Shown one piece after another: positions 4,944-19,572 of a DNA stretch of 32,000 nt (position 1 is its first letter; the number at the start of each line of letters is the position of its first letter). Origin of the DNA: Nostoc sp. XA010 (lineage in GTDB: Bacteria > Cyanobacteriota > Cyanobacteriia > Cyanobacteriales > Nostocaceae); contig NZ_JAIVFX010000034.1 in NCBI RefSeq assembly GCF_020829625.1, positions 37,633 to 69,632 of the forward strand. Direction: 5' to 3'. The notes beneath the pieces were generated by a model, which was not told where the DNA came from, did not search any database, and saw only the letters and a program-made list of their open reading frames with translations. Made by a program: the position numbers and the translations under genes.

Positions 4944-5171
4944 ATGGTTATTAAAATTTTAGAATTAGGTATTCTCAGGGAGCTTACCGAAGAAGAAGAA
5001 GAAAGCTATAAAGGAGGTACTTCCACAGAAGGTGCAGATATCCCTGTTAGTGGCGTTCCCAAAGTCAAGGATGCTACTGGTAAACCTCCTACATCTCACG
5101 TAAATCTTGTGCCAAAACCACCTGTTGTGTCAAAACCACCTGTTGAGCCACAAGAAATTGAAACAACCTAA
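4944..5171 (+). CDS. Small hypothetical protein, possibly a double-glycine-leader (cyanobacterial bacteriocin-like) peptide precursor with a Pro-rich C-terminal region
   Basis: 75-aa ORF with AGAGG about 8 nt upstream of the ATG. The N-terminus MVIKILELGILRELTEEEEESYKGG resembles GG-type leaders. The remainder is Pro/Lys/Val-rich and has an internal direct repeat, CAAAACCACCTGTTG twice, encoding PKPPVV and SKPPVE. Confidence 0.4.
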   Translation: MVIKILELGILRELTEEEEESYKGGTSTEGADIPVSGVPKVKDATGKPPTSHVNLVPKPPVVSKPPVEPQEIETT

Positions 5172-5260
5172 GTATAAGCTGCTACTAGCAATTTCATAAG
5201 ATAAAAAACAGCTATTGTTCCTACGTTTGACAAGGCTAGTCCTAATTTTTATTAAACTAT

Positions 5261-7963
5261 TCAAGTACGTCCGGTAAGGTTGGCAATTACGGCTGCTAAC
5301 TCGCCCGGATTGACTGGTTTGGGGACATGGAGTTGAAAGCCTGCTAACAGAGCTTGCGTGCGATCTTCTGCCCTAGCATAGGCTGTCAGCGCTACTGCTG
5401 GAATCCGCCCACCTTGGTCTGCTGGTAGCGCCCTGACTTGACGAATTAGTGTGTAGCCGTCTTCTTGTGGCATACCAATATCGCTCACCAGTATATGGGG
5501 GCGAAATTCTTGCAGGGCAAGCAGTGCATCACTTGCAGATGGAGCAGCCATGACTTGGGCCCCATACTGTCCCAGAATCATGGTGAGCAAATGACGCGCG
5601 TCGGCCTCATCATCAACAATCAGCACCCGTAAGTCATCTAGCTTTGGCAGGTAATTGTTAGCGTCTTGGGTATCTCCAACAGATGAAAGCTGCTCTGCGG
5701 TATTAGCCTCTACATAGACGGCTTTCATTGGCAAATTGACAATGAATGTCGCCCCCTCTCCAATTCCTGGACTTTCGGCAGAGACTGTGCCGCCGTGTAA
5801 TTCTACTAAGTGGCGGACGATCGCTAACCCTAATCCTAATCCACCATGCGATCGCGTGATCGAACTGTCTTCTTGACGGAAGCGTTCAAATACATGCGAC
5901 AGGAATTCGGCAGCAATTCCTACTCCTGTATCGCTCACCCGAATTTGCACGTAGGATTCAATGCGCTCCAATTGCACATCAATTCTTCCCCCCTTGGGTG
6001 TAAACTTAACAGCGTTGGAGAGCAAATTCCACACAACTTGTTGCAAGCGGTTGGCATCACCCACAACTACCCCTAATTCCGGGTCGAATTTACAGTTGAT
6101 GCTAATCTCTTTGGCCTGGGCTGCTGGGTACACAGTATCGATTGCTGCCTCTACAAGTGGTACAAGTTTTACCCGATGAATATTTAGATGCAGTGTGCCT
6201 CTAATAATCCGCGAAACATCTAAGACATCTTCGATTAGTTGAGCTAGGGATCTAGTGTTACGCTCGATTGTCTCTAGTGCCCGGCTAGTAGTAGTCTCAT
6301 CAAACTTGCGATTCCTAAGTAGCTGCGTCCAACCCAATATCGCGTTTAAGGGTGTGCGGAGTTCGTGGGAGAGTGTGGCGAGAAATTCATCTTTCATGCG
6401 GTTTGCAGCTTCTGCATCGGCTCGTGCTGCTTGTTCGCGCTCAAGCAATTGTTCACGTTCTTGCTCTGCTTGCTTGCGCTCGGTAATATCAATCATGAAT
6501 CCATGTAATAGTTGCGGCCCATTCTCATCCCGCACCACATTAACAATGTCATACAACCATACGACTCTGCCATCAGCCGCCAGCATTCTGTATTCAAATT
6601 CGTAATTATTCAGTAATAAAGAAGACTCTTGGCAATACTGAATAGCCCACTCCTGATCTTCTGGATGCATGTGTTTTGCCCAGAAATTATCGGTGTACCA
6701 GTCTGACAATTGATAGCCAAGAATATCAACGGTTTGCGGCCCTACATAGGTAAAATTATTGGTAGTAGCATTTACCTCCCAAGGAATCACGCGGACTTTT
6801 TCTGTGAGTGTCCTTAACCGTTTTTCGCTATGTTTAAGAGCTGCTTCTGCTAACTTGTAAAGTGTAATATCTGTGATTAGGGCAACAAATCCTTCAACTT
6901 TTTCTTGCTGACTAAACTGGGGAACGTAAGTGACATTCACGTAATGGTTTGTGCCATCTTTATCGGGTACTTGGGTTTCGTAAGTTACTTGTTCTCCTGA
7001 AAGTACCCTTTCTATATAAGGAAGAATTGACTCATAAACTGATTCTCCGACAATTTCTCTAATGTGTTTACCATAAATTTCTGCAGTAGGAATTCCAAAC
7101 CAGTCTTCATATCCTTTATTATTAAAGCGATAACACTGTTCGTTATCAACATAGGATATCTGGACAGGTACAGCATTTGTAATCAGGCGGAGTTGATCTT
7201 CTTGTTGGCGCAGTGCTGCTTCTACTTGTTTGCGTTCGCTTAAATCAAGTACAAAACAGATAACATGCTCTGGATTATTTTCTAATAAGGCGCAACCTAA
7301 CAGGATGGGAACACGGCTACCATCTTTGCGGATGTATTCGTTCTCAAAGGGCTGACACACGCCTTTGGTTGTGAGTTCTGCGATAGCACTGTTGTTAGCT
7401 TCAATATATTCTGGTGGTATGATGTCGCGCCATCGAAGCCCTCCTAGCAAATCCTCTTGCGAATAACCTACCATTGTTAAAAAAGCATCGTTAGCTTCTG
7501 CGTAGGCGTAGCCCGCCGTAGGCATCGCCCCGTCCATATTGGCTACAATTACCCCAATAATGTTGGAATCTACCAACCTTCTAAATTTTGCCTCGCTCAC
7601 CTGTAGCTTCTGCAAACTCATTTGAAGATGTTGTTTAGCAGTGCGTAACTCTGAGGTGAGCAAGCTGATAAGTATTGTTACCAGCATAAATAAGCCTAAC
7701 CGCACTATGCTGTTAAGATTATCAACAAAGAGCGAAAACACTGGCTCTAAGAAAAAGAAGCTGACGGCTAAAGTAGACAAAGCAGTAGCTAGTAACCCTG
7801 CTTTCATACCCCCATACCAAGTACTAACCGCTACGGCAGGAAAAAATAGCAGAAAAATAGTTGGTTTTAGTAGTGGCTGTAGCAATAGTGTTAGTTGCAA
7901 TGCGCTACCAACAGCTAATAATGTCACAGCATAGGGCGCTAGAAGGGAACGTGTTCCTTTCAA
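5261..7963 (-). CDS. Hybrid sensor histidine kinase: N-terminal membrane segment, multiple PAS domains, HisKA/HATPase and a C-terminal receiver
   Basis: 900-aa ORF with a TTG start at 7963 preceded by AAGGAG 8 nt upstream. Motifs are the H-box LSHELRTPLNAILGW, NLLSNAVKFT, DTGVGI and GLGLGLAIV. The receiver shows VLIVDDEADARH...LVSDIGMP...VPKP. Confidence 0.9.
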   Translation of the reverse strand: MKGTRSLLAPYAVTLLAVGSALQLTLLLQPLLKPTIFLLFFPAVAVSTWYGGMKAGLLATALSTLAVSFFFLEPVFSLFVDNLNSIVRLGLFMLVTILISLLTSELRTAKQHLQMSLQKLQVSEAKFRRLVDSNIIGVIVANMDGAMPTAGYAYAEANDAFLTMVGYSQEDLLGGLRWRDIIPPEYIEANNSAIAELTTKGVCQPFENEYIRKDGSRVPILLGCALLENNPEHVICFVLDLSERKQVEAALRQQEDQLRLITNAVPVQISYVDNEQCYRFNNKGYEDWFGIPTAEIYGKHIREIVGESVYESILPYIERVLSGEQVTYETQVPDKDGTNHYVNVTYVPQFSQQEKVEGFVALITDITLYKLAEAALKHSEKRLRTLTEKVRVIPWEVNATTNNFTYVGPQTVDILGYQLSDWYTDNFWAKHMHPEDQEWAIQYCQESSLLLNNYEFEYRMLAADGRVVWLYDIVNVVRDENGPQLLHGFMIDITERKQAEQEREQLLEREQAARADAEAANRMKDEFLATLSHELRTPLNAILGWTQLLRNRKFDETTTSRALETIERNTRSLAQLIEDVLDVSRIIRGTLHLNIHRVKLVPLVEAAIDTVYPAAQAKEISINCKFDPELGVVVGDANRLQQVVWNLLSNAVKFTPKGGRIDVQLERIESYVQIRVSDTGVGIAAEFLSHVFERFRQEDSSITRSHGGLGLGLAIVRHLVELHGGTVSAESPGIGEGATFIVNLPMKAVYVEANTAEQLSSVGDTQDANNYLPKLDDLRVLIVDDEADARHLLTMILGQYGAQVMAAPSASDALLALQEFRPHILVSDIGMPQEDGYTLIRQVRALPADQGGRIPAVALTAYARAEDRTQALLAGFQLHVPKPVNPGELAAVIANLTGRT
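7499..7528. repeat. Small dispersed repeat (about 29 bp, GCGTAGGCGTAGCCCGYCGKAGRCATCGC family), copy inside the kinase CDS
   Basis: TGCGTAGGCGTAGCCCGCCGTAGGCATCGC is near-identical to copies at 8027-8055, 17130-17158 and 20492-20520 (reverse orientation), with a weaker copy at 13346-13376. Confidence 0.8.
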
Positions 7964-8951: not shown

Positions 8952-9012
8952 CCAATGCCCAATGCCCAATGCCCAATCCCCAATCCCCCATGCCCAATCC
9001 CCAATGCCCAAT
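8952..9012. repeat. STRR-type heptamer tandem array (CCCAATG/CCCCAAT)
   Basis: CCAATGCCCAATGCCCAATGCCCAATCCCCAATCCCCCATGCCCAATCCCCAATGCCCAAT has a 7-bp period and sits immediately upstream of the helicase ATG. Confidence 0.9.
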
Positions 9013-9016
9013 ACTC

Positions 9017-10618
9017 ATGGCTCGTACTCCTACATTAAATTTTGATCGCGGCACATTAATTTTGCATCCACCACCACGCGGCAAAGGTTGGATGGATTAT
9101 GCTACATGGGATGATAGAGTTGAAAAATTCCGCATTCCCGCAATTAGATACCGATCGCTAGTGGAAGCACTACAAGCGGAAGATGTAAATTTTATCGATG
9201 AGGCCAAGCAATTTTATCCTGTAGATTTGGTTCCCAGTCTGGAAATGGAACCCTATCCCCACCAAACTGAAGCGCTAGCAGCTTGGAAACTGGCGGGTAG
9301 ACAAGGGGTTGTTGTGCTTCCCACGGCGGCGGGAAAGACTTATTTGGCGCAAATGGCGATGCAGTCAACACCGCGCACGACGCTAATTGTCGTGCCAACT
9401 TTAGATTTAATGCATCAGTGGTATGCACACTTAGTAGCGGCTTTCCCCGATGCTGAGGTGGGATTGCTGGGAGGTGGTTCGCGGGATAGAACAGCTATTC
9501 TCGTTGCAACTTATGATAGTGCAGCAATTCACGCTGAGACGTTGGGAAATCAATATGGTTTGATTGTTTTTGATGAATGTCATCATTTACCCACAGATTT
9601 TAATCGGGTGATTGCTGAATATGCGATCGCACCTTATCGCCTAGGACTCTCCGCTACACCAGAACGCACCGATGGTAAACACGCTGAGTTAAATATCCTC
9701 ATTGGTCAAGAAGTATATCGCAAACGCGCCGAAGATTTGGCGGGGAAGGCGTTAGCAGAGCATGAAATTGTTCAAATTAAGGTAAAGTTATCGCAACTTG
9801 AACGGGAAAGATACAATCAGTTAATTCAAACCCGCAATGACTTTTTGAAGCAATCAAAGATTTCTTTGGGGAGTCTTCAAGGTTGGCAAATGTTCGTGCA
9901 AATGAGCGCGCGATCGCAATCTGGACGTAGGGCGATGTTAGCGCATCGAGAAGCGAAAGATATCGCTTTGGGTACTGATGGTAAATTGCGAATTCTAATT
10001 GATTTATTGGCAGAACATTATCCAGCAAGAATTTTGATTTTTACTGCTGATAATACGACGGTTTATCGCATTTCTCAAGAGTTGCTAATTCCGGCAATTA
10101 CTCATCAAACTCCTGTGAAAGAACGGCATGAGATATTAACAAAGTTTCGAGAGGGTAAATATAATACTTTGGTTGCTTCTCATGTGTTGAATGAAGGAGT
10201 TGATGTGCCGGCGGCTTCTGTAGCGATTATTTTATCGGGAACGGGTTCGGCTAGAGAGTATACTCAGCGATTGGGTAGGATTTTACGGAAGGGGAATATT
10301 GAGAATAAGCAGGCGATTTTGTATGAAGTGGTGGCGGAGGATACGAGTGAGGAGGGGACTTCGGCTAGGCGGAGAGGGGAGAGGATAAGAGGACAAGGGG
10401 ACAAGGAGACAAGGGGACAAGGGGAGAAGAAAGGGAAGTTACAGGTTGTGTATGGGAGTGGGAAGGAAAGGAGTTTGAAGGCTGCGGAACAGTTAGAGAT
10501 TAATTATTCAATCCAAAATCCAAAATCTAAAATCCAAAATTCAGCAGATGTTACCGACAGATTTACTGATGCATCGCCAAAACGGAGAGGAGATCATTCC
10601 GAAGAGACTGAAGATTGA
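9017..10618 (+). CDS. xpb: XPB/Rad25-like SF2 DNA helicase (DEAD/DEAH box helicase family) with a repeat-derived C-terminal tail
   Basis: ATG 9017 (MARTPTLNFDRGTLILHPPP) is preferred because the 16 codons from the track start at 8969 are the heptamer repeat. Motifs are LPTAAGKT (Walker A), FDECHH (DExH), GLSATPERTDG (XPB RED-like region) and QRLGRILR (motif VI). The DUF790 partner lies immediately downstream. Confidence 0.85.
   Translation: MARTPTLNFDRGTLILHPPPRGKGWMDYATWDDRVEKFRIPAIRYRSLVEALQAEDVNFIDEAKQFYPVDLVPSLEMEPYPHQTEALAAWKLAGRQGVVVLPTAAGKTYLAQMAMQSTPRTTLIVVPTLDLMHQWYAHLVAAFPDAEVGLLGGGSRDRTAILVATYDSAAIHAETLGNQYGLIVFDECHHLPTDFNRVIAEYAIAPYRLGLSATPERTDGKHAELNILIGQEVYRKRAEDLAGKALAEHEIVQIKVKLSQLERERYNQLIQTRNDFLKQSKISLGSLQGWQMFVQMSARSQSGRRAMLAHREAKDIALGTDGKLRILIDLLAEHYPARILIFTADNTTVYRISQELLIPAITHQTPVKERHEILTKFREGKYNTLVASHVLNEGVDVPAASVAIILSGTGSAREYTQRLGRILRKGNIENKQAILYEVVAEDTSEEGTSARRRGERIRGQGDKETRGQGEKKGKLQVVYGSGKERSLKAAEQLEINYSIQNPKSKIQNSADVTDRFTDASPKRRGDHSEETED
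10391..10425. repeat. STRR-type heptamer array (GGGGACA/AGGGGAC) inside the helicase 3' tail
   Basis: GGACAAGGGGACAAGGAGACAAGGGGACAAGGGGA is translated as RGQGDKETRGQGE. Confidence 0.8.
10510..10541. repeat. STRR-type heptamer array (AAAATCC) inside the helicase 3' tail, just upstream of the DUF790 start
   Basis: AATCCAAAATCCAAAATCTAAAATCCAAAATT is translated as IQNPKSKIQNS. Confidence 0.8.
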
Positions 10619-11762
10619 TCGGGGAACTTCGGAGTTGGCGATTGAGTTAATTAATTATTTTCAATCAGCAGTGGGGAAGACTCAAGGTGTGCTTGAGCGG
10701 CAACTGACTGATTTTGAAGGAGATTCTACAGATTATCGGGTGAAGCGAGGGTTAGCTTATATTCTCAAAAGCAGTTTTTGCACTTTTGAGGTGGTTAGTC
10801 CTTTAGAACCACAAATGTTAAGAGAACGGGTGTTTTCGTTGGCTGCAAAATCGGTTTCTAGTCGAGAATCAACACAAGTTACTTTGAGTAAAGTTGCTGA
10901 TGAGTTAACTCAAGAACTTGAGCGGGAAGTTTTATTAGAACAGGTTCGGAATGGACTGTATGCTGATTTAGCTGAAAATAAAATTTTGACTGTTTTTGAT
11001 GCACCAACAGCGCCAGATGTGTTAAATAGATATAACTTATCTCAGGTACAGGGTGTATTTTATAAAGCCAGTCAACTTGTATTAAATGCTCATCGGAATG
11101 TTCCGGGTGAATATAAGCTGTTATTTCGCTATTTGAAGTTGTTTCAATTAATGGCTTATATTGAAGGTGATGCTGACCACGGGTTTACAATTACCATTGA
11201 TGGCCCAACGAGTTTGTTTAATCCTAGTACACGATATGGGTTAGCGATCGCTAAACTTATTCCGGCTTTACTTCACGTTACTAAATGGAGTCTTTCGTCC
11301 ATTCTCCAAACCCGTGACGCTTATACAAATAGTTGGAAAACTGGACGTTTCACTCTCAATTCAGAATGTGGTTTGGTATCCCACTATCCACCAGGCAAGC
11401 CCTACGATAGTATGCTAGAAGCATCCTTTGCTGATAAGTGGGATGCGTTAAAAAGTGGTTGGGCGTTAGAGCGAGAAGTTGATTTGATACCGATTCCCGG
11501 TAGTGTGATGATTCCCGATTTTCGCTTAGTTCATGCTGATGGACGCACCTTTTTGTTAGAAATTGTTGGTTATTGGCGACCAGAATATTTACAAAAGAAG
11601 TTTTCTCAAGTGCGGCGGGCTGGACGTGATGACTTAATTTTGGCAATTTCCGAACGACTTAATTTAGAAAAGGCGGGAGTAAAATTAGATGATGTCCCCG
11701 CCAGAATTGTTTGGTTTAAAGATAAGTTGTTGCCGAAAGCTGTGTTAGCTGTAATGGATTGA
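10548..11762 (+). CDS. DUF790 family protein (Bax1-like endonuclease partner of XPB)
   Basis: 404-aa ORF whose N-terminus MLPTDLLMHRQNGEEIIPKRL has the typical DUF790 pattern. The C-terminal nuclease-like segment is IPDFRLVH...LLEIVGYWRPEYLQKK. It follows the XPB-like helicase directly and overlaps it by 71 nt. Confidence 0.75.
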   Translation: MLPTDLLMHRQNGEEIIPKRLKIDRGTSELAIELINYFQSAVGKTQGVLERQLTDFEGDSTDYRVKRGLAYILKSSFCTFEVVSPLEPQMLRERVFSLAAKSVSSRESTQVTLSKVADELTQELEREVLLEQVRNGLYADLAENKILTVFDAPTAPDVLNRYNLSQVQGVFYKASQLVLNAHRNVPGEYKLLFRYLKLFQLMAYIEGDADHGFTITIDGPTSLFNPSTRYGLAIAKLIPALLHVTKWSLSSILQTRDAYTNSWKTGRFTLNSECGLVSHYPPGKPYDSMLEASFADKWDALKSGWALEREVDLIPIPGSVMIPDFRLVHADGRTFLLEIVGYWRPEYLQKKFSQVRRAGRDDLILAISERLNLEKAGVKLDDVPARIVWFKDKLLPKAVLAVMD

Positions 11763-11777
11763 TTAAGGAGGAATGAG

Positions 11778-12020
11778 ATGAAAAGTATAGAAACAATTGC
11801 CACAGTTAGCAAAGATGGTAAGATTACGGCGCAGTTACCATTGGATATTCCAGAGGGTGAACATCAAGTGGTAATAGTAATTGATGAAAAGCCTTTGGCT
11901 GAGGAAGCAGAGAGGAAAGAAAAGCGTCCTCCTCTAAACTTTCCTGTGCATAATTATGGGCCTTGGCCTGAAAATCTTTCTTTAAGACGTGAGGATATGT
12001 ATGGTGATTGGGGGCGGTAA
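11778..12020 (+). CDS. Type II antitoxin (VapB-like), partner of the PIN toxin
   Basis: 80-aa ORF with GGAGGA upstream. The N-terminal beta-rich segment IETIATVSKDGKITAQLPLDIPEGEHQVVIVIDE and the C-terminal ...LSLRREDMYGDWGR tail are typical of cyanobacterial antitoxins. It overlaps the PIN gene by 20 nt. Confidence 0.65.
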   Translation: MKSIETIATVSKDGKITAQLPLDIPEGEHQVVIVIDEKPLAEEAERKEKRPPLNFPVHNYGPWPENLSLRREDMYGDWGR

Positions 12021-12453
12021 TCCTGTTTTTCTAGACACAAATATCCTGGTGTACGCTAGTCAGATTAAGTCTCCATTTCACCAAGCTGCTATGGAGGCTA
12101 TCCAAGATTTTTATGATGCAGGGGTTGACTTGTGGATTAGCCGACAAGTGTTGCGGGAATATTTGGCTACCCTTACCCGTCCGCAACAATTTGCCAACCT
12201 ACTACCCATTGCAATAGTAATTCAGGATCTCCGCTATTTCTATAACCGCTTTCGGGTGGCTGAAGATAGTTCTCAGGTGACAGAAAGGTTACTGACACTC
12301 ATGGAGGAAATTCCTAGCGGTGGGAAGCAAGTTCATGATGCAAATATTGTCGCTACGATGCTAGTTTATGGTATTCCTCAGTTACTTACTCACAATACAA
12401 GTGATTTTGCAAGATTTTCTGGGTTAATTACTGTCTTGCCATTACAAGGTTAG
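12001..12453 (+). CDS. vapC: PIN-domain toxin (VapC family ribonuclease)
   Basis: The N-terminal VFLDTNILVYA provides the first PIN acidic residue, and HDANIVATM and THNTSDF follow later. ATG 12001 is preferred over the GTG at 11989. The gene is translationally coupled to the upstream antitoxin. Confidence 0.8.
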   Translation: MVIGGGNPVFLDTNILVYASQIKSPFHQAAMEAIQDFYDAGVDLWISRQVLREYLATLTRPQQFANLLPIAIVIQDLRYFYNRFRVAEDSSQVTERLLTLMEEIPSGGKQVHDANIVATMLVYGIPQLLTHNTSDFARFSGLITVLPLQG

Positions 12454-13427: not shown

Positions 13428-13552
13428 ATTACCCGCCATAGGTTAGAAACCTATGGCTAATAGCTAAAGTCTTCTAAAGAAGACTGAGAATGGGTTTTAG
13501 TCCACTTGAGTGGAGTTGGGCTATTAGCCTTGCAATTGATTGCAAGGCGGGA
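13428..13552. mobile_element. MITE-like multi-hairpin element with terminal inverted repeats
   Basis: The ends CCCGCC and GGCGGG are inverted repeats. Internal hairpins are CCATAGGTT-AGAA-ACCTATGG, AGTCTTCT-AAA-GAAGACT, TCCACT-TGAGTGGA and CCTTGCAAT-TG-ATTGCAAGG. GGCTAATAGC and GCTATTAGCC are also inverted. Related copies lie at 25400-25522 and 4368-4435 (partial). Confidence 0.6.
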
Positions 13553-13612: not shown

Positions 13613-14032
13613 ATGGAACCTGTAACATTAACAGCTGTTGCAACTGCGATCGCTACTATAGTTTTAACTAAAGCCCTAGAAAAAACTGGCGAAAAGCTTG
13701 GAGAAGCTGCATTAGACAAAAGTCGTGAGTTAATCGAACAGCTACATAATAAAAATAAATTGCCCTTGCTAGCGGATGCGACACAGCAGCCATTAGATTA
13801 TGGCAAAGCAGTCTTGGAGTTGAAAGCAGCAGCAGACGCAGATACCGAAATTGCTCAATCAGTGCGGGAAGTCGAAGCAGCCGCAAATGCTGATCCCCAA
13901 GCGCCGAAAGTCCAGGCGCTAGCGAATGACCTAAATTCGCAACCAGCAGGCGTTATCAATTCTACAAAGTTAGCTGACTCTATTAAAAACGTCTTTCAGG
14001 GAAATACTTTCACTGGTACTAATAACTTCTGA
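13613..14032 (+). CDS. 139-aa N-terminal module of the NLR-like locus: hydrophobic head, helical region and an N/Q/G/T/F-rich tail; candidate effector domain
   Basis: The ORF reads MEPVTLTAVATAIATIVLTKALEKTGEKLGEAALDK...INSTKLADSIKNVFQGNTFTGTNNF*. It is in the same reading frame as the NB-ARC/TPR ORF and separated from it by a single TGA (14030-14032). Confidence 0.6.
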   Translation: MEPVTLTAVATAIATIVLTKALEKTGEKLGEAALDKSRELIEQLHNKNKLPLLADATQQPLDYGKAVLELKAAADADTEIAQSVREVEAAANADPQAPKVQALANDLNSQPAGVINSTKLADSIKNVFQGNTFTGTNNF

Positions 14033-14107
14033 CTACAGTCGCCCGAACAGGAACGGGTAAAGTTAAATCCCTCTACTGAAACACCACAAAATTTACCTCT
14101 GAGTGGG

Positions 14108-16687
14108 GTGGTGGAGTTTATTGGACGTGAGGCTGAATTGCAAAACCTGCATGAGATGTTGCAGGAAAATAATCAGGTGGTAATTGCTGCGATCGCTGGT
14201 ATGGGTGGACTGGGTAAAACAGAATTAGCCTTACAATATGCAATGGCTCACCGTGAAACTTACAAGGGTGGAATTTGCTGGTTGCTGGCAAAGGCTGGAG
14301 ATGTGGGCATTCAAATTGTGCAGTTTGCCAGAACTCAGCTTGATTTAAACCCACCAGAAGATTTGGATATCCTCACACAAGTGCAATACTGCTTTCGGCT
14401 TTGGCGCGAAGGTAATGTACTGCTATTATTAGACGATGTTGGAGAATATCAACAAGTTAAGCCTTACTTACCTCTGCCATCTTCTCGATTTAAAGTGTTG
14501 ATTACCACGCGCCAACACTTCGGGGCATCTATAAAGGAATTATCTCTAGATGTATTGCAAGCAGAAGCAGCGCTAGAGTTATTAAAGTCATTTTTTAAAG
14601 AAACACCACAGCGAATTGAGCAAGAATTGGCTGTTGCAAATCAGTTGTGTGAGTGGTTGGGATATTTACCTTTGGGTTTGGAATTAGTCGGGCGATATTT
14701 GGCGCGAAAACAGGATTTATCTCTAACAGAAATGTTGCGGCGGTTAGAGAACAAGCGACTAGAACAACCCGCCCTTATTAAACCAGAAGCCGATATGACA
14801 GCACAACGAGGTGTATTAGCGGCCTTTGAGTTGAGTTGGCAAGAATTAAAGGATGAAGATAAGAAGCTTGGCTGTTTGCTGAGTTTATTCGCCGCCGCAC
14901 CTATATCTTGGAAGTTGGTGGAACAGTGTTTACCAGAGTCAGACGAGGAAGAATTAGAGGAAATTAGAGATGATAAGTTGTTGAATTTGCATTTACTTCA
15001 GCGCAAAGATGAGGGAGTTTATCAACTACATCCACTGCTAAGAGAGTTTTTTCAATATAAGCTTACAGGTTTAGAACAGGCAGAGCAATTAAAGCGATCG
15101 CTTTGTCGGGTAATGGTAGCAGTTGCCAAAGATATTCCTGAAGACGCTACCCTTAAGCAAATTACTGCTGTCTCCCCTGCCATTCCTCATATAGCTGAAG
15201 TAGCGAATCATCTCATTCAATACGTCAGCGATGATGATTTAATTTCGCTATTCATCGGTAATGCTCAATTTTATCAAGGTCAGGGATTGTATAGCCAAGC
15301 TGCACCTTGGTACCAAAAGTGTCTAGAAGCTACCAAAGAACGCTTAGGAGAAGAACATCCAGATGTCGCCCAAAGCCTCAACAACCTAGCATATCTCTAC
15401 AACTCCCAAGGCAGATACAGAGAAGCCGAACCCCTTCACCAACAAGCTTTAGCACTCAGGCGCAAGCTGCTGGGAGAAGAACATCCAGATGTCGCCGTTA
15501 GCCTCAACAACCTAGCGCATCTCTACTACTCTCAAGGTAGATACAGCGAAGCCGAACCCCTTTACATCCAAGCTTTAGCACTCAGGCGCAAGCTGCTGGG
15601 TGAAGAACATCCATCTGTCGCCGTTAGCCTCAACAACCTAGCGGGACTCTACGACTCCCAAGGCAGATACAGCGAAGCCGAACCCCTTTACATCCAAGCT
15701 TTAGCACTCTGCCGCAAACTGCTGGGAGAAGAACATCCATCTGTCGCCACTAGCCTCAACAACCTAGCGTGTCTCTACGACTCCCAAGGCAGATACAGCG
15801 AAGCCGAACCCCTTTACCAACAAGCTTTAGCACTCAGCCGCAAGCTGCTGGGTGAAGAACATCCAGATGTCGCCCAAAGCCTCAACAACCTAGCGTATCT
15901 CTACAACTCCCAAGGCAGATACAGCGAAGCCGAACCCCTTTACATCCAAGCTTTAGCACTCAGGCGTCAACTGCTGGGTGAAGAACATCCCGATGTCGCC
16001 CAAAGCCTCAACAACCTAGCGTCTCTCTACGAATCCCAAGGCAGATACAGCGAAGCCGAACCCCTTTACATCCAAGCTTTAGCACTCTGGCGCAAACTGC
16101 TGGGAGAAGAACATCCATCTGTCGCCACTAGCCTCAACAACCTAGCGTATCTCTACAACTCCCAAGGCAGATACAGCGAAGCCGAACCCCTTTACATCCA
16201 AGCTTTAGCACTCAGGCGTCAACTGCTCGGAGATGAACATCCTGATGTTGCACTTAACCTCAACAACCTAGCGTGTCTCTACGACTCCCAAGGCAGATAC
16301 AGCGAAGCCGAACCACTTTCCATCCAAGCTTTAGCACTCTCGCGCAAGCTGCTGGGAGAAGAACATCCATCTGTGGCACTTAGCCTCAACAACCTAGCAC
16401 TACTCTACAACTCCCAAGGCAGATACAGCGAAGCCGAACCCCTTCACATCCAAGCTTTGGCACTCAGGCGCAAGCTGCTGGGAGAAGAACATCCATTATT
16501 TGCCCTTAGTCTCAACAATCTGGCAAAACTCTACTACTTGCAAGAACTTTATGTAGAAGCTGAACCGTTGTATCTGCAAGCTTTGGAGATTTTTGAGCAA
16601 GGATTAGGGGTGAATCATCCCCACACTGTCAAATGTCGTGAAAATTTGGCAAGTCTACGCGATCGCCTCTCCTCAAATCCAGAATAG
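14108..16687 (+). CDS. NB-ARC (STAND NTPase) plus TPR-repeat protein, bacterial NLR-like; the 5' boundary is uncertain and the protein may be 13613-16687 if the UGA is read through or is an error
   Basis: Motifs are the Walker A GMGGLGKTELA, the Walker B LLLLDDV and the GLPL-type motif GYLPLGLELVGR. A helical linker follows, then ten 42-aa TPR units and a degenerate terminal unit. The track start is GTG 14108, but the frame is open back to the TGA at 14030. Confidence 0.9.
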   Translation: MVEFIGREAELQNLHEMLQENNQVVIAAIAGMGGLGKTELALQYAMAHRETYKGGICWLLAKAGDVGIQIVQFARTQLDLNPPEDLDILTQVQYCFRLWREGNVLLLLDDVGEYQQVKPYLPLPSSRFKVLITTRQHFGASIKELSLDVLQAEAALELLKSFFKETPQRIEQELAVANQLCEWLGYLPLGLELVGRYLARKQDLSLTEMLRRLENKRLEQPALIKPEADMTAQRGVLAAFELSWQELKDEDKKLGCLLSLFAAAPISWKLVEQCLPESDEEELEEIRDDKLLNLHLLQRKDEGVYQLHPLLREFFQYKLTGLEQAEQLKRSLCRVMVAVAKDIPEDATLKQITAVSPAIPHIAEVANHLIQYVSDDDLISLFIGNAQFYQGQGLYSQAAPWYQKCLEATKERLGEEHPDVAQSLNNLAYLYNSQGRYREAEPLHQQALALRRKLLGEEHPDVAVSLNNLAHLYYSQGRYSEAEPLYIQALALRRKLLGEEHPSVAVSLNNLAGLYDSQGRYSEAEPLYIQALALCRKLLGEEHPSVATSLNNLACLYDSQGRYSEAEPLYQQALALSRKLLGEEHPDVAQSLNNLAYLYNSQGRYSEAEPLYIQALALRRQLLGEEHPDVAQSLNNLASLYESQGRYSEAEPLYIQALALWRKLLGEEHPSVATSLNNLAYLYNSQGRYSEAEPLYIQALALRRQLLGDEHPDVALNLNNLACLYDSQGRYSEAEPLSIQALALSRKLLGEEHPSVALSLNNLALLYNSQGRYSEAEPLHIQALALRRKLLGEEHPLFALSLNNLAKLYYLQELYVEAEPLYLQALEIFEQGLGVNHPHTVKCRENLASLRDRLSSNPE
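15344..16603 (+). repeat. Ten tandem 126-bp (42-aa TPR) units with very high nucleotide identity inside the NLR CDS
   Basis: Units start at 15344, 15470, 15596, 15722, 15848, 15974, 16100, 16226, 16352 and 16478. The consensus is LGEEHPxVAxSLNNLAxLYxSQGRYSEAEPLxxQALALxRxL. Confidence 0.95.
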
Positions 16688-17225: not shown

Positions 17226-17420
17226 TTAAAGGCTATTCCATTCTTCTAGCGTGATTTCCCGCTCTAGAATCACCTCAACTTCCCGAATCATCAGCCGCAA
17301 TTGTGGTACAGAATACTCATCATTAGAGGGAATAGTTAGACGATGTTGCCCATAAACCATAAATTGATGTCTTGTTCCAGAATAAGGCCCCTCAAACCCA
17401 ATCCGTCGTAATTTTCTCAC
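17226..17420 (-). CDS. hicA: HicA-like (YcfA family) mRNA interferase toxin
   Basis: The 64-aa ORF reads (V)RKLRRIGFEGPYSGTRHQFMVYGQHRLTIPSNDEYSVPQLRLMIREVE. It uses a GTG start, because an in-frame TAG lies 27 nt upstream. It starts 14 nt after the hicB-like stop. Confidence 0.65.
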   Translation of the reverse strand: MRKLRRIGFEGPYSGTRHQFMVYGQHRLTIPSNDEYSVPQLRLMIREVEVILEREITLEEWNSL

Positions 17421-17433
17421 AAAATCCCGACGC

Positions 17434-17706
17434 TTACAGGGTATCTATCGGCTCAAGAGTCGGCTCCTTATTGAGGTCAATATTATCAATTATTGGTAGA
17501 TAATGTCCCAGCTTTAACCCAAGCAAAATCCAGTCTTCCAGTGTTGAGCGTAATTCATCCTCACACTCGCGTAAAGTCGATGCAAAAGCTATCACTCCTT
17601 TGCAAACAGGAATTCTACCTGCAAATATACCATCTTCTAACTTGTCATAAATTGCCTGGGCGATCGCTCGGTCAACATAGTCGCTTAGAATAAACTTTAT
17701 CGTCAT
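17434..17706 (-). CDS. hicB: HicB-like (UPF0150 family) antitoxin, short form without an obvious DNA-binding extension
   Basis: The 90-aa ORF reads MTIKFILSDYVDRAIAQAIYDKLEDGIFAGRIPVCKGVIAFASTLRECEDELRSTLEDWILLGLKLGHYLP. It lies directly upstream of the hicA-like gene. Confidence 0.65.
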   Translation of the reverse strand: MTIKFILSDYVDRAIAQAIYDKLEDGIFAGRIPVCKGVIAFASTLRECEDELRSTLEDWILLGLKLGHYLPIIDNIDLNKEPTLEPIDTL

Positions 17707-18063: not shown

Positions 18064-19572
18064 TCAAGTCCAATCACTTGAACCTTCTTGGATTCCTCTT
18101 TCCATTTCCTCTAAAGTTGCACTTTTCATTCCTGGACGGTGTAAAAGCCCTGATAAGCTTTGAATAGGAACAGAATCCCCCACTGAAACATTGCTGAATT
18201 CAGAATTCTGAATTCTGGATTCTTCTTCAACATTTAAACTCTCACTTTTTTTAAGATATTGTCGAAAATATAAACGATATAATTCACACGCAACAGTAGT
18301 GCGATCGCCTTCTAAATTAATTAGCCCCATACTCTGTAATTTACATACTAATGCTGGCTCTAATTGCACATAATTTGTAGCGTTAATTACCTCATAAAAA
18401 GCATTTTTCAATTCTGGCTCATCTTGTAGCACTAACACAAACTGCCTTAAATACTCGTGATAAATTCCTGCTTCTGTGGGTGCTTGTTGCAATAGCTGTT
18501 CTAAATTTCCTTCTAGTCCCCCTCTACCCACAAGGTGATAAAAAGCCAATCGCAGCAAATAAGGATATCCTCCCACCATTGCCATCAAACTATCGACATT
18601 TTTCCCATCTGTCCAATCCAAGCCGTGACGTAGTGCCAAATCCAGCACCTGCTCTCTTGTAAAGGGAGATAACTTAATCGGTAAACCAATATTAAATGGT
18701 GATTGAGTCAGTTTTATCGGAACAATAATTTCCGTTGAATAAACCAGAACTAAACGCAGTTTTTGCCAAACTTCTACACCTTTGGCTTGTTCATACCACG
18801 ATCGCAGCAATAATAACAATTCTTCAAAAAGTTTTTGATGCTCAAACACCCAGTCCACCTCATCCAATATCAAAACAAGAGGACTTTCCAGCGCCGACAG
18901 TAAATACTCTTGGAAATAGATAAAGCAACTGACTTTGCTACCCATATCTTCATTCCAATAATCATTGAGTTTTGGTTCTAGCTGTAACTCCCGACTCACC
19001 TTTGCACAGAACCAGCGCAAAAATTTATCCAAACTGGCAAATACTGCTTTATCTGCTTGCTGAAAGTTCAACGTCACGGTGCAAAAGCCTTGATTGTTAG
19101 CGCGTGCAAGCAACCGCAAAATTAGAGAGCTTTTCCCCATCTTCTTTGGTGCTTTGATGCAGATAAGACTTCCAGGTTTAGCTATTTCTGTGTAGACAAC
19201 TTCTTCAATTGGCGGGCAAGGGATGTAAAATCTGGAATTAAGAGATACTGGGCCACTAGGAAATTCTAAGGATATAGCCGTGGCTGCTTTGTTGAATTCC
19301 TTAACTAATTGCTGATGTGGTTTGCTAAGACGATGATTTTCTAAAGTCTGGCGAAAGTTTGATTTATTTATAGGTTCTTTGCAAAAAACACTTAGTAATT
19401 GCCATAAATGAGCAGCAATTTTCCTGACACCTTCCTCATCGTAGTCAGCTTCACAGGCTATATTCGTGTAGGTTTCTCCTTCCCACGAAGAACGCAATAT
19501 AATCTCTTGACGTGTCGTTAAACCGGTTGCTTGACTGGCTTTTAGTAGCAAAACTACTTCATCTATAGTCAT
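18064..19572 (-). CDS. AAA-like (AAA_35 type) P-loop ATPase with an N-terminal HTH-like module; STAND-like signalling ATPase
   Basis: 502-aa ORF. The N-terminal LTTRQEIILRSSWEGETYTNIA...VRKIAAHLWQLLS is HTH-like. FYIPCPPIEEVVYTEIAKPGSLICIKAPKKMGKSSLILRLL is the P-loop and LVLILDEVD is the Walker B. The C-terminal tail contains a GAATTCT heptamer array. Confidence 0.7.
   Translation of the reverse strand: MTIDEVVLLLKASQATGLTTRQEIILRSSWEGETYTNIACEADYDEEGVRKIAAHLWQLLSVFCKEPINKSNFRQTLENHRLSKPHQQLVKEFNKAATAISLEFPSGPVSLNSRFYIPCPPIEEVVYTEIAKPGSLICIKAPKKMGKSSLILRLLARANNQGFCTVTLNFQQADKAVFASLDKFLRWFCAKVSRELQLEPKLNDYWNEDMGSKVSCFIYFQEYLLSALESPLVLILDEVDWVFEHQKLFEELLLLLRSWYEQAKGVEVWQKLRLVLVYSTEIIVPIKLTQSPFNIGLPIKLSPFTREQVLDLALRHGLDWTDGKNVDSLMAMVGGYPYLLRLAFYHLVGRGGLEGNLEQLLQQAPTEAGIYHEYLRQFVLVLQDEPELKNAFYEVINATNYVQLEPALVCKLQSMGLINLEGDRTTVACELYRLYFRQYLKKSESLNVEEESRIQNSEFSNVSVGDSVPIQSLSGLLHRPGMKSATLEEMERGIQEGSSDWT
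18194..18223. repeat. STRR-type heptamer array (GAATTCT/GAATTCA) within the 3' end of the AAA_35 CDS
   Basis: CTGAATTCAGAATTCTGAATTCTGGATTCT is translated on the minus strand as ...RIQNSEFSN... Confidence 0.75.

Follow-up and report, generated by a model that had tools for sequence, protein, structure and literature searches.

How are two genes expressed that share one reading frame and have a single stop codon and a linker free of start codons between them? The question is raised by a locus in a 32,000-nucleotide (nt) stretch of Nostoc sp. XA010 (RefSeq assembly GCF_020829625.1, contig NZ_JAIVFX010000034.1, positions 37,633 to 69,632 of the forward strand), hereafter the window, in whose numbering positions are given unless a related locus is named. 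There, an open reading frame (ORF) for a 139-amino-acid (aa) effector and an ORF for an NB-ARC/TPR STAND NTPase (NLR) lie in the same frame, separated by one TGA (14030-14032) and 25 codons. According to an earlier reading of the letters alone (the sequence-only reading), the locus matches neither a classical two-gene architecture nor a clean fusion, and the single in-frame TGA followed by a start-less linker bears this out. We consider it likely that programmed readthrough of this conserved UGA joins the effector to the NLR, giving a free effector together with a rare fusion protein. The locus would then probably be a cell-death or immunity module of the known kind, in which a Bell-domain effector carrying a bacterial amyloid signalling (BASS) motif accompanies an NLR, with a previously unrecognised, recoding-based expression architecture as its new part. 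The features of the two ORFs and their junction are as follows.

13613-14029 (+): coding region of the Bell-family effector, 139 codons, with ATG start and TGA stop (full ORF 13613-14032)
13619-13672 (+): uncharged N-terminal helix, residues 3-20, PVTLTAVATAIATIVLTK, with Glu2 just before it (from the sequence, the family alignment and an AlphaFold2 helix at 6-25)
13949-14029 (+): C-terminal N/Q/G/T/F-rich tail, residues 113-139, at the same position as the BASS5 motifs of relatives
14030-14033 (+): conserved UGA stop with C at +4, the proposed readthrough site (UGA in 71 and +4 C in 70 of 71 related loci)
14033-14107 (+): in-frame linker of 25 codons, LQSPEQERVKLNPSTETPQNLPLSG, without ATG, GTG or TTG and holding the pre-NB-ARC 'NLP' segment
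14108-16687 (+): NB-ARC/TPR STAND NTPase (NLR), stop at 16685-16687; the readthrough frame runs from 14033 to 16684
about 14129-14764 and about 15179-16657 (+): NB-ARC and TPR regions of the NLR, respectively (Pfam)

To see what is conserved at the junction, 79 genome loci encoding relatives of the effector were fetched and 82 junctions analysed. The frame stays open for more than 200 codons past the stop, or to the contig end, in 71 of the 82, continuing into an NB-ARC/TPR protein at 53 loci and into another STAND-type protein, mostly NACHT, at 18 (the NACHT examples sampled among these were NACHT/HEAT). All 71 open-frame loci stop with TGA and 70 have C at +4, within a junction consensus of TGA CTR NAN TCG YCY. 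Among 370 long ORFs from the same loci, taken as background, TGA makes up 29% of the stops and TGAC 3.5%, tied as the rarest tetranucleotide stop. UGA is the leakiest stop codon; leaky termination is favoured in various organisms when C occupies +4, and viral and eukaryotic genes are known to use UGA-CUA for readthrough (PMC7026636).

The reading frame past the stop is equally constrained. Within 25 codons 3' of the TGA, a stop is found in frame 0 at none of the 71 loci, in frame +1 at 70 and in frame +2 at 52. NB-ARC-type linkers measure 25, 26, 27 or 28 codons to the F[VI]GR motif, their length changing by whole codons only, and despite these four lengths the NB-ARC match shares the frame of the small ORF at all 53 junctions of this type. 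The first ATG, GTG or TTG lies 17-75 codons 3' of the stop and varies between loci in place and type, with one exceptional locus having a TTG right after the stop. In the window, the NLR could start no earlier than the GTG at 14108, where the NB-ARC domain opens with its FIGRE motif; the linker stretch ahead of the first start codon would include the peptide LNPSTETPQNLPLSGVVEFIGR here and LNPEIPQNLPLSGVVK in the L202-type sequence, a locus where gene callers place the NLR start at either 5529 or 5541 of the same sequence. At NACHT-type loci, a conserved pre-NACHT segment (TPINWREICRQLL...YVPLALV) is encoded ahead of any usable start; in the two-gene locus of Tolypothrix (L064), that segment comes after the motif on the NLR side. 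The downstream ORF is in frame and has no conserved initiation site of its own, and both the leaky stop and its 3' context are conserved, as expected of readthrough. A scan between the two ORFs returned no promoter-like or terminator-like site and was uninformative.

The region just 3' of the stop also appears to be under selection as RNA, with one well-supported hairpin and two possible extensions.

14041-14058 (+): hairpin S1, stem 14041-14045 with 14054-14058, loop 14046-14053 (AACAGGAA), starting 8 nt after the UGA
14030-14065 (+): tentative lower stem around S1, UGACU (14030-14034) with AGUUA (14061-14065)
14050-14070 (+): possible pseudoknot stem S2, loop GGA (14050-14052) with UCC (14068-14070)

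The S1 stem has 5-6 bp across loci, is predicted independently by RNAalifold and is paired at 97% in 60 unique genome sequences and at 98.4% in 128 sequences including metagenomes, against 49% at most in slid-register controls. Compensatory double changes occur at three of its pairs, in 52, 27 and 12 sequences (CG to UA or back in 52 and 26 at the first two, and to C-G in 11 of the 12 at the G-C pair). These changes are non-synonymous, coupling Pro/Ser with Val/Thr and Arg with Gln, and because they alter the encoded residues, selection must act on the RNA. A pattern scan of metagenomes provided a built-in control, since complementarity was not imposed: S1 was perfect (5/5 pairs) in 63 of 63 hits flanked by ORFs versus 3 of 42 hits without ORFs. 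By this comparison, S1 is a covarying structure immediately 3' of the stop, a further property expected of a readthrough signal. The lower stem (UGACU with AGUYA) is 96% paired with one-sided changes only (G-U/G-C), and it is absent from both the RNAalifold prediction and the single-sequence minimum free energy fold. In relatives S2 reaches 4-6 bp, the loop GGGA, GAGA, CAGGA or GGGAG being matched by UCCC, UCUC, UCCUG or CUCCC 9-10 nt after S1. Pairing at the core positions of S2 is 87-98%, double changes fill 23 cells, and the energy of the loop/downstream duplex is -6.69 for matched versus -6.00 (standard deviation 0.13) for mismatched partners. We regard this pseudoknot extension of the hairpin as tentative; support for the RNA structure as a whole is comparative.

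Two closely related loci indicate what this combination of UGA and hairpin, which we call the cassette, replaces. L064 has the classical two-gene layout and L063 (Nostoc mirabile) has the cassette. Between L063 8001-9341 and L064 5299-9044, identity is 83% for the Bell domains and, from 'TPINW' onward, 97% for the NLRs. The tail and TPINW are separated in L064 by a stop, 18 nt, a start codon and a 36-residue NLR-side BASS5 segment, and in L063 by the UGA and a 12-codon linker that encodes the hairpin. This is the sole architectural difference, from which it follows that the cassette stands in for the start codon plus receptor-side motif. The comparison indicates a recent exchange between the two junction architectures. 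Covariance model R1 gave 80 matches in the 1.14 Mb of fetched loci, all at family junctions; in L062 and L064, both of the two-gene type, it detected no cassette. In the window it has a single match, at 14024-14071 (73.6 bits).

The cassette is found beyond Bell effectors. Of the metagenome pattern hits, 56 lie behind Bell-family ORFs, whose tails are very diverse. The other hits with long ORFs on both sides come after TIR_2 (3.9e-16) or DUF676/PGAP1-like alpha/beta-hydrolase domains and precede NB-ARC/TPR or NACHT/HEAT NTPases, with R1 E values of 7e-8 to 5e-13 (L132 870, L094 1275, L138, L156 1610, L170 1475, L174 934 and L189). Several cassette copies occur in single genomes (L031, L050 and L084); Scytonema hofmanni UTEX 2349 has three cassette loci (L031, L043). 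On chromosome CP183817.1 (6.41 Mb), the cassette locus L202 5001-7715 (small ORF 5001-5459, cassette 5457-5498, NLR to 7715) lies downstream of a heavy-metal P-type ATPase. In a Nostoc metagenome-assembled genome (GCA_054880675.1, L080 6001-6630), an identical 139-aa gene and an intact cassette are followed by an NLR of only 44 codons.

The effector ORF is real, since it has 296 homologues at E<=0.01 in a 90%-clustered database and 417 homologues that represent 50% clusters at E<=0.001. The family is large, nearly all its members are stand-alone proteins of 130-160 aa, and all named sources are Nostocales. Translation yields the N-terminus MEPVTLTAVATAIATIVLT, which opens with an uncharged stretch, and the C-terminal tail VINSTKLADSIKNVFQGNTFTGTNNF, exactly as the sequence-only reading had quoted them. 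The N-terminus is the most conserved region of the family alignment (M1, A8, A12, I13, T19, K20, E23 and G26, the first six being invariant or near-invariant). Bell-domain effectors have been described as short stand-alone proteins of about 120-140 aa in which the N-terminal helix is hydrophobic and position 2 or 3 is acidic (Dyrka et al. 2020, bioRxiv 10.1101/2020.01.06.895854). The window protein has 139 residues, begins M-E-P-VTLTAVATAIATIVLT with its acidic residue at position 2, has the N-terminal helix in the alignment and in the AlphaFold2 model (helix 6-25), and is collinear with an adjoining STAND NTPase, the NB-ARC/TPR gene directly 3' of it. That the small ORF sits directly 5' of such a gene, as had been noticed from the letters, agrees with the Pfam matches (NB-ARC at 3e-17, and TPR).

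The closest informative relative is the protein of L064 5299-5736, which aligns with the effector over its full length, tail included (63% identity, E 6e-53). It ends in a textbook BASS5 motif (QKLAEKIGQVVVGGTGSIQNQSF), and 18 nt after this Bell-type ORF begins a NACHT/HEAT NLR that opens with the matching NLR-side motif (MPEDTGKFAEKIGVV). A second relative, P0215 (31% identity, E 4e-16), has a tail nearly identical to BASS5 entries of Table S2 in Dyrka et al. The Bell/BASS assignment holds because of the 63% identity to a relative with both a BASS5 motif and a classical partner NLR. Together with the N-terminal signature, this upholds the earlier proposal of a Bell-like effector: membership of the Bell family is supported by homology, by way of BASS5-bearing relatives and not of the founding Saccharothrix Bell sequence. 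A hidden Markov model (HMM) of BASS5 was built from the 17 instances of the same Table S2, and many family members end in textbook motifs (KLAEKIGxVVQGG...) that score 1e-14 to 1e-5 against it. Aligned with the L064 motif, the window tail reads NSTKLADSIKNVFQGNTFTGTN versus NLQKLAEKIGQVVVGGTGSIQN and is, on this alignment, a diverged derivative at the BASS5 position. The BASS5 profile found no second copy in the 25-codon linker, as the sequence-only reading had said, and none in the NLR.

An AlphaFold2 model from 24 sequences gives the predicted all-helical body (mean predicted local distance difference test score, pLDDT, 61), in keeping with the helical region proposed earlier, and low confidence for the tail (pLDDT 33-56 over residues 113-139). 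Foldseek of the model against the PDB gave nothing better than E 1.8, and a profile search of PDB sequences returned coiled-coil noise only; a structural link to Bab, HeLo or MLKL is therefore absent. Scans of the 139-aa protein against Pfam, NCBIfam and PADLOC gave no match; a cluster look-up of the family found no accession overlapping Table S2 of Dyrka et al. Four family members of 364-823 aa (P0179, P0184, P0231 and P0247) are fused without a stop to other modules, namely a NACHT-C/HEAT fragment, a coiled coil and a P-loop NTPase-like region (Walker A by eye).

The downstream ORF has the NB-ARC plus repeat sensor architecture of a STAND NTPase, with Pfam matches to NB-ARC (3e-17), TPR_12 (4e-176) and, in 11 stretches, TPR_12/TPR_10. 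Divergence by codon position in the NB-ARC region (0.17/0.13/0.35) speaks of purifying selection. In the TPR sensor array, a unit of 126 bp (42 aa) is repeated 9.3 times in tandem, with 89% matches (15347-16518). Repeats of such high internal conservation have been observed before in NLRs of fungi and bacteria and point to a rapid turnover of the units.

How the locus might work can be sketched as follows, every step beyond a conserved recoding-type signal, among them the occurrence and efficiency of readthrough, the inserted residue, amyloid templating and membrane damage, being one that we infer. Most ribosomes would stop at the UGA (14030-14032) and release the free 139-aa effector. A minority would decode it, presumably through a near-cognate tRNA such as tRNA-Trp, UGA being leaky in bacteria; the weak UGA-C context and the hairpin or pseudoknot 8 nt downstream would help. 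These ribosomes would cross the 25-codon linker into the NB-ARC/TPR frame and produce an effector-tail-linker-NLR fusion. Because the fusion would carry the same tail as the free effector, it would supply the receptor-side motif that seems to be missing, in place of the second copy borne by a classical NLR N-terminus. Once the TPR sensor is triggered, the NLR could oligomerise and its clustered tails could nucleate an amyloid or other assembled state. This state would draw in the free effector, present in abundance, and convert it, after which the effector's N-terminal helix would attack the membrane. For TIR and hydrolase effectors, the analogous step might be nucleated co-assembly. The very diverse tails of cassette loci could be understood on the same terms, since there would be no second copy to co-evolve with. 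Amyloid-templating logic of this sort has been demonstrated for Bab/Agp in E. coli (10.1101/2024.11.07.622273) and for HET-S/NWD2.

Several observations weigh against readthrough or against its coupling to amyloid templating. The evidence for readthrough is comparative and the extended protein is a prediction. To our knowledge, there is practically no documented bacterial case of a cellular gene with structure-stimulated readthrough, which makes the prior low. The window tail scores 0.5 bits against the BASS5 HMM, no better than shuffled sequences and not significant. Some hydrolase-type effectors with a cassette have no obvious amyloid-like tail; the cassette is consequently not tied to Bell or BASS, and the templating rationale may not be general across cassette effectors. 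The window element by itself folds unremarkably (-8.9 kcal/mol, z -1.36), and its S2 has only 3 bp. At NB-ARC-type loci, a GTG or TTG is often found 3-8 codons ahead of FVGRE, and independent initiation there retains some plausibility. Finally, divergence of the linker by codon position (0.18/0.14/0.19) shows no third-position bias, so that its coding status rests on maintenance of the ORF and on whole-codon indels; a flat signal is as expected of a poorly constrained linker that also encodes an RNA structure.

The alternative that best survives, although we judge it unlikely, is that of two separately translated genes, with the NLR initiating at an internal GTG or TTG (14108 in the window) and the hairpin acting on mRNA stability, processing or translational coupling. 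Gene callers annotate the locus in this way, the GTG is there, the hairpin loops are purine-rich and resemble Shine-Dalgarno sequences (GGGGA/GGAGGA), and the hairpin energy is unremarkable in a single sequence. However, the start codon is conserved neither in position nor in type, the conserved 'PQNLP...G' pre-NB-ARC segment sits upstream of the GTG, and NACHT-type loci would forfeit 25-75 conserved residues. Separate translation also leaves unexplained the constant frame with its whole-codon indels and the universal choice of UGA-C, the weakest stop signal. It implies that the NLR signals to the effector without a shared motif, and the exchange between L063 and L064 would have dropped the NLR-side motif without replacement.

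It is also possible, if quite improbable, that the junction is in essence a recombination module at the DNA level, a shared 40-50 nt along which effector and NTPase cassettes are shuffled, with the stop and hairpin as by-products. At least three kinds of effector and at least two kinds of NTPase are found combined through the cassette, L063 and L064 look like a recent junction exchange on nearly identical flanks, and genomes such as those of L031, L050 and L084 hold several copies. Homology alone, however, does not predict compensatory changes that preserve a stem, nor an invariant UGA-C followed by an always-open, start-less frame. Shuffling may well be an additional consequence of the cassette, and it leaves the expression of the locus unexplained.

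An in-frame UGA with a hairpin a few nt downstream and conserved loop G residues about 20 nt after the UGA recalls a selenocysteine codon with a bacterial selenocysteine insertion sequence (SECIS), a reading that we consider very improbable. A survey of 61 cyanobacterial genomes found neither tRNA-Sec nor a UCA anticodon, and it took in Scytonema hofmanni UTEX 2349, itself a carrier of the cassette (PMC6933170). No Rfam family, SECIS models included, matches the junction at E<=10, the UGA lies in an interdomain linker and not at a redox site, and a Cys (UGY) or any other sense codon takes its place in 0 of about 130 loci. Least probable, and in effect refuted by the comparison of loci, are effector-NLR fusion genes decaying after a nonsense mutation: an NLR degraded behind an intact effector and cassette is seen in L002, L033, L049, L066 and L079 as well as L080, but more than 130 diverged loci from many genera of Nostocales share this codon, stop and context, downstream ORFs of 500-1270 codons are intact in most of them, and the NB-ARC region is under purifying selection.

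Other readings of the junction were rejected, as was selenocysteine. Frameshifting is ruled out by the downstream ORF being in frame 0, initiation at a CUN codon after the stop by CUA occurring in about half of the loci, an intrinsic terminator by the absence of a U-run, and a pseudogene by conservation across loci.

With readthrough of the UGA as the favoured explanation, the locus can be set beside known systems. Like the Bell/BASS and NLR pairs of Dyrka et al. (2020), it has a helical effector of about 140 aa with a hydrophobic N-terminal helix, an acidic position 2 and an N/Q/G-rich C-terminal tail at the BASS5 position, encoded just ahead of a collinear NLR of NB-ARC/TPR or NACHT type; both are confined to multicellular cyanobacteria, and the 63%-identical relatives are bona fide BASS5 pairs. 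It differs in that the window NLR has neither a motif copy nor a start codon of its own, in that an in-frame UGA-C and hairpin replace the intergenic region and NLR-side motif, and in that the tails of cassette loci are far more diverse than BASS5. As in fungal HET-S/NWD2, a receptor-borne motif would template a membrane-targeting effector, and the predicted readthrough product has the architecture of 'all-in-one' NLRs with an N-terminal HeLo or Bell domain. Unlike either, one ORF would here give both the all-in-one receptor and the free effector, with motifs identical by construction where HET-S/NWD2 has two co-evolving copies.

The signal itself resembles programmed readthrough signals, among them the Q-beta coat/A1 UGA, the murine leukaemia virus (MuLV) gag-pol stop and UGA-CUA contexts, in its leaky UGA, +4 C and CUA or CUG as the next codon. 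In MuLV gag-pol, an RNA structure lies about 8 nt downstream of the stop. Here, too, a stem that may be part of an H-type pseudoknot opens about 8 nt past the UGA, and one frame is predicted to give a major short and a minor extended product. Structure-stimulated readthrough has been reviewed (PMC7026636). The known cases are viral or eukaryotic, whereas this one is a multi-copy bacterial cellular family that would join an effector to an NTPase of 700-1200 aa. With bacterial SECIS elements the junction shares the in-frame UGA and the close conserved hairpin, and it departs from them in the points already given: no reported cyanobacterial tRNA-Sec, no SECIS match in Rfam, no Cys orthologues and a non-catalytic site.

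The sequence-only reading had suggested an undescribed effector variant. The novelty lies elsewhere, in the conserved in-frame UGA junction. Full-text literature searches did not find this arrangement described, with incomplete coverage that makes an earlier description possible, and the searches found no proteomic or ribosome-profiling record of the extended protein. If readthrough is confirmed, bacterial cellular genes would provide a rare example of its conservation in association with an RNA structure, with many paralogues across heterocystous cyanobacteria, and hundreds of 'N-terminally truncated' NLRs and 'hypothetical 140-aa proteins' in cyanobacteria might be single recoded genes. Amyloid or cooperative-assembly signalling would gain a third design next to the two-gene pair and the all-in-one NLR: a single ORF would be the source of both a tethered seed and a free pool, their motifs identical, which would make motif co-evolution unneeded and may explain tail diversity. 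The locus therefore bears on how the receptor:effector ratio is set in NLR signalling and on whether 3' structures can program bacterial ribosomes for readthrough.

A bolder version, which we hold to be improbable, would make the cassette a dedicated recoding element used across an entire class of NLR immune or cell-death systems, with Bell, TIR and hydrolase effectors and NB-ARC and NACHT receptors. Readthrough efficiency would be the control point, since the fusion would form only as often as termination fails, and the stop codon would belong to the sensor and do more than set stoichiometry. Perturbed UGA termination during infection or stress would then lead to more armed receptor and push the cell towards death; release factor 2 (RF2) depletion, phage suppressor tRNAs, stop-codon-recoded phages or ribosome modification could be such perturbations.

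In the intergenic region 5' of the effector gene are three perfect short inverted repeats (13435-13457, 13468-13485 and 13527-13548), the last overlapped by a sub-threshold Rfam match to Acido-Lenti-1 (24 bits, E 0.004). Dispersed cyanobacterial repeats are one possible explanation of them, a regulatory leader another. Farther upstream, an SF2 helicase gene (8969-10618, +; PADLOC PbeA, 2.4e-52) overlaps a gene for a DUF790 protein (10548-11762, +; Pfam 4.3e-154), together looking like an XPB/Bax1-like helicase-nuclease pair. Because of this nearby pair and its PbeA match, the NLR locus may lie in a defence-rich neighbourhood. Between the pair and the repeats, a small ORF (11778-12020, +) overlaps a PIN-domain ORF (11989-12453, +; the PIN call is that of the gene table for L080, a near-identical locus), an arrangement like a VapBC-type toxin-antitoxin. 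Downstream of the NLR and on the opposite strand are two small ORFs of 64 and 90 aa, HicA/HicB-like by eye (17226-17706, -), and beside them a gene for a 502-aa AAA_35 ATPase (18064-19572, -; Pfam 4.9e-139), a second STAND-like gene near the NLR.

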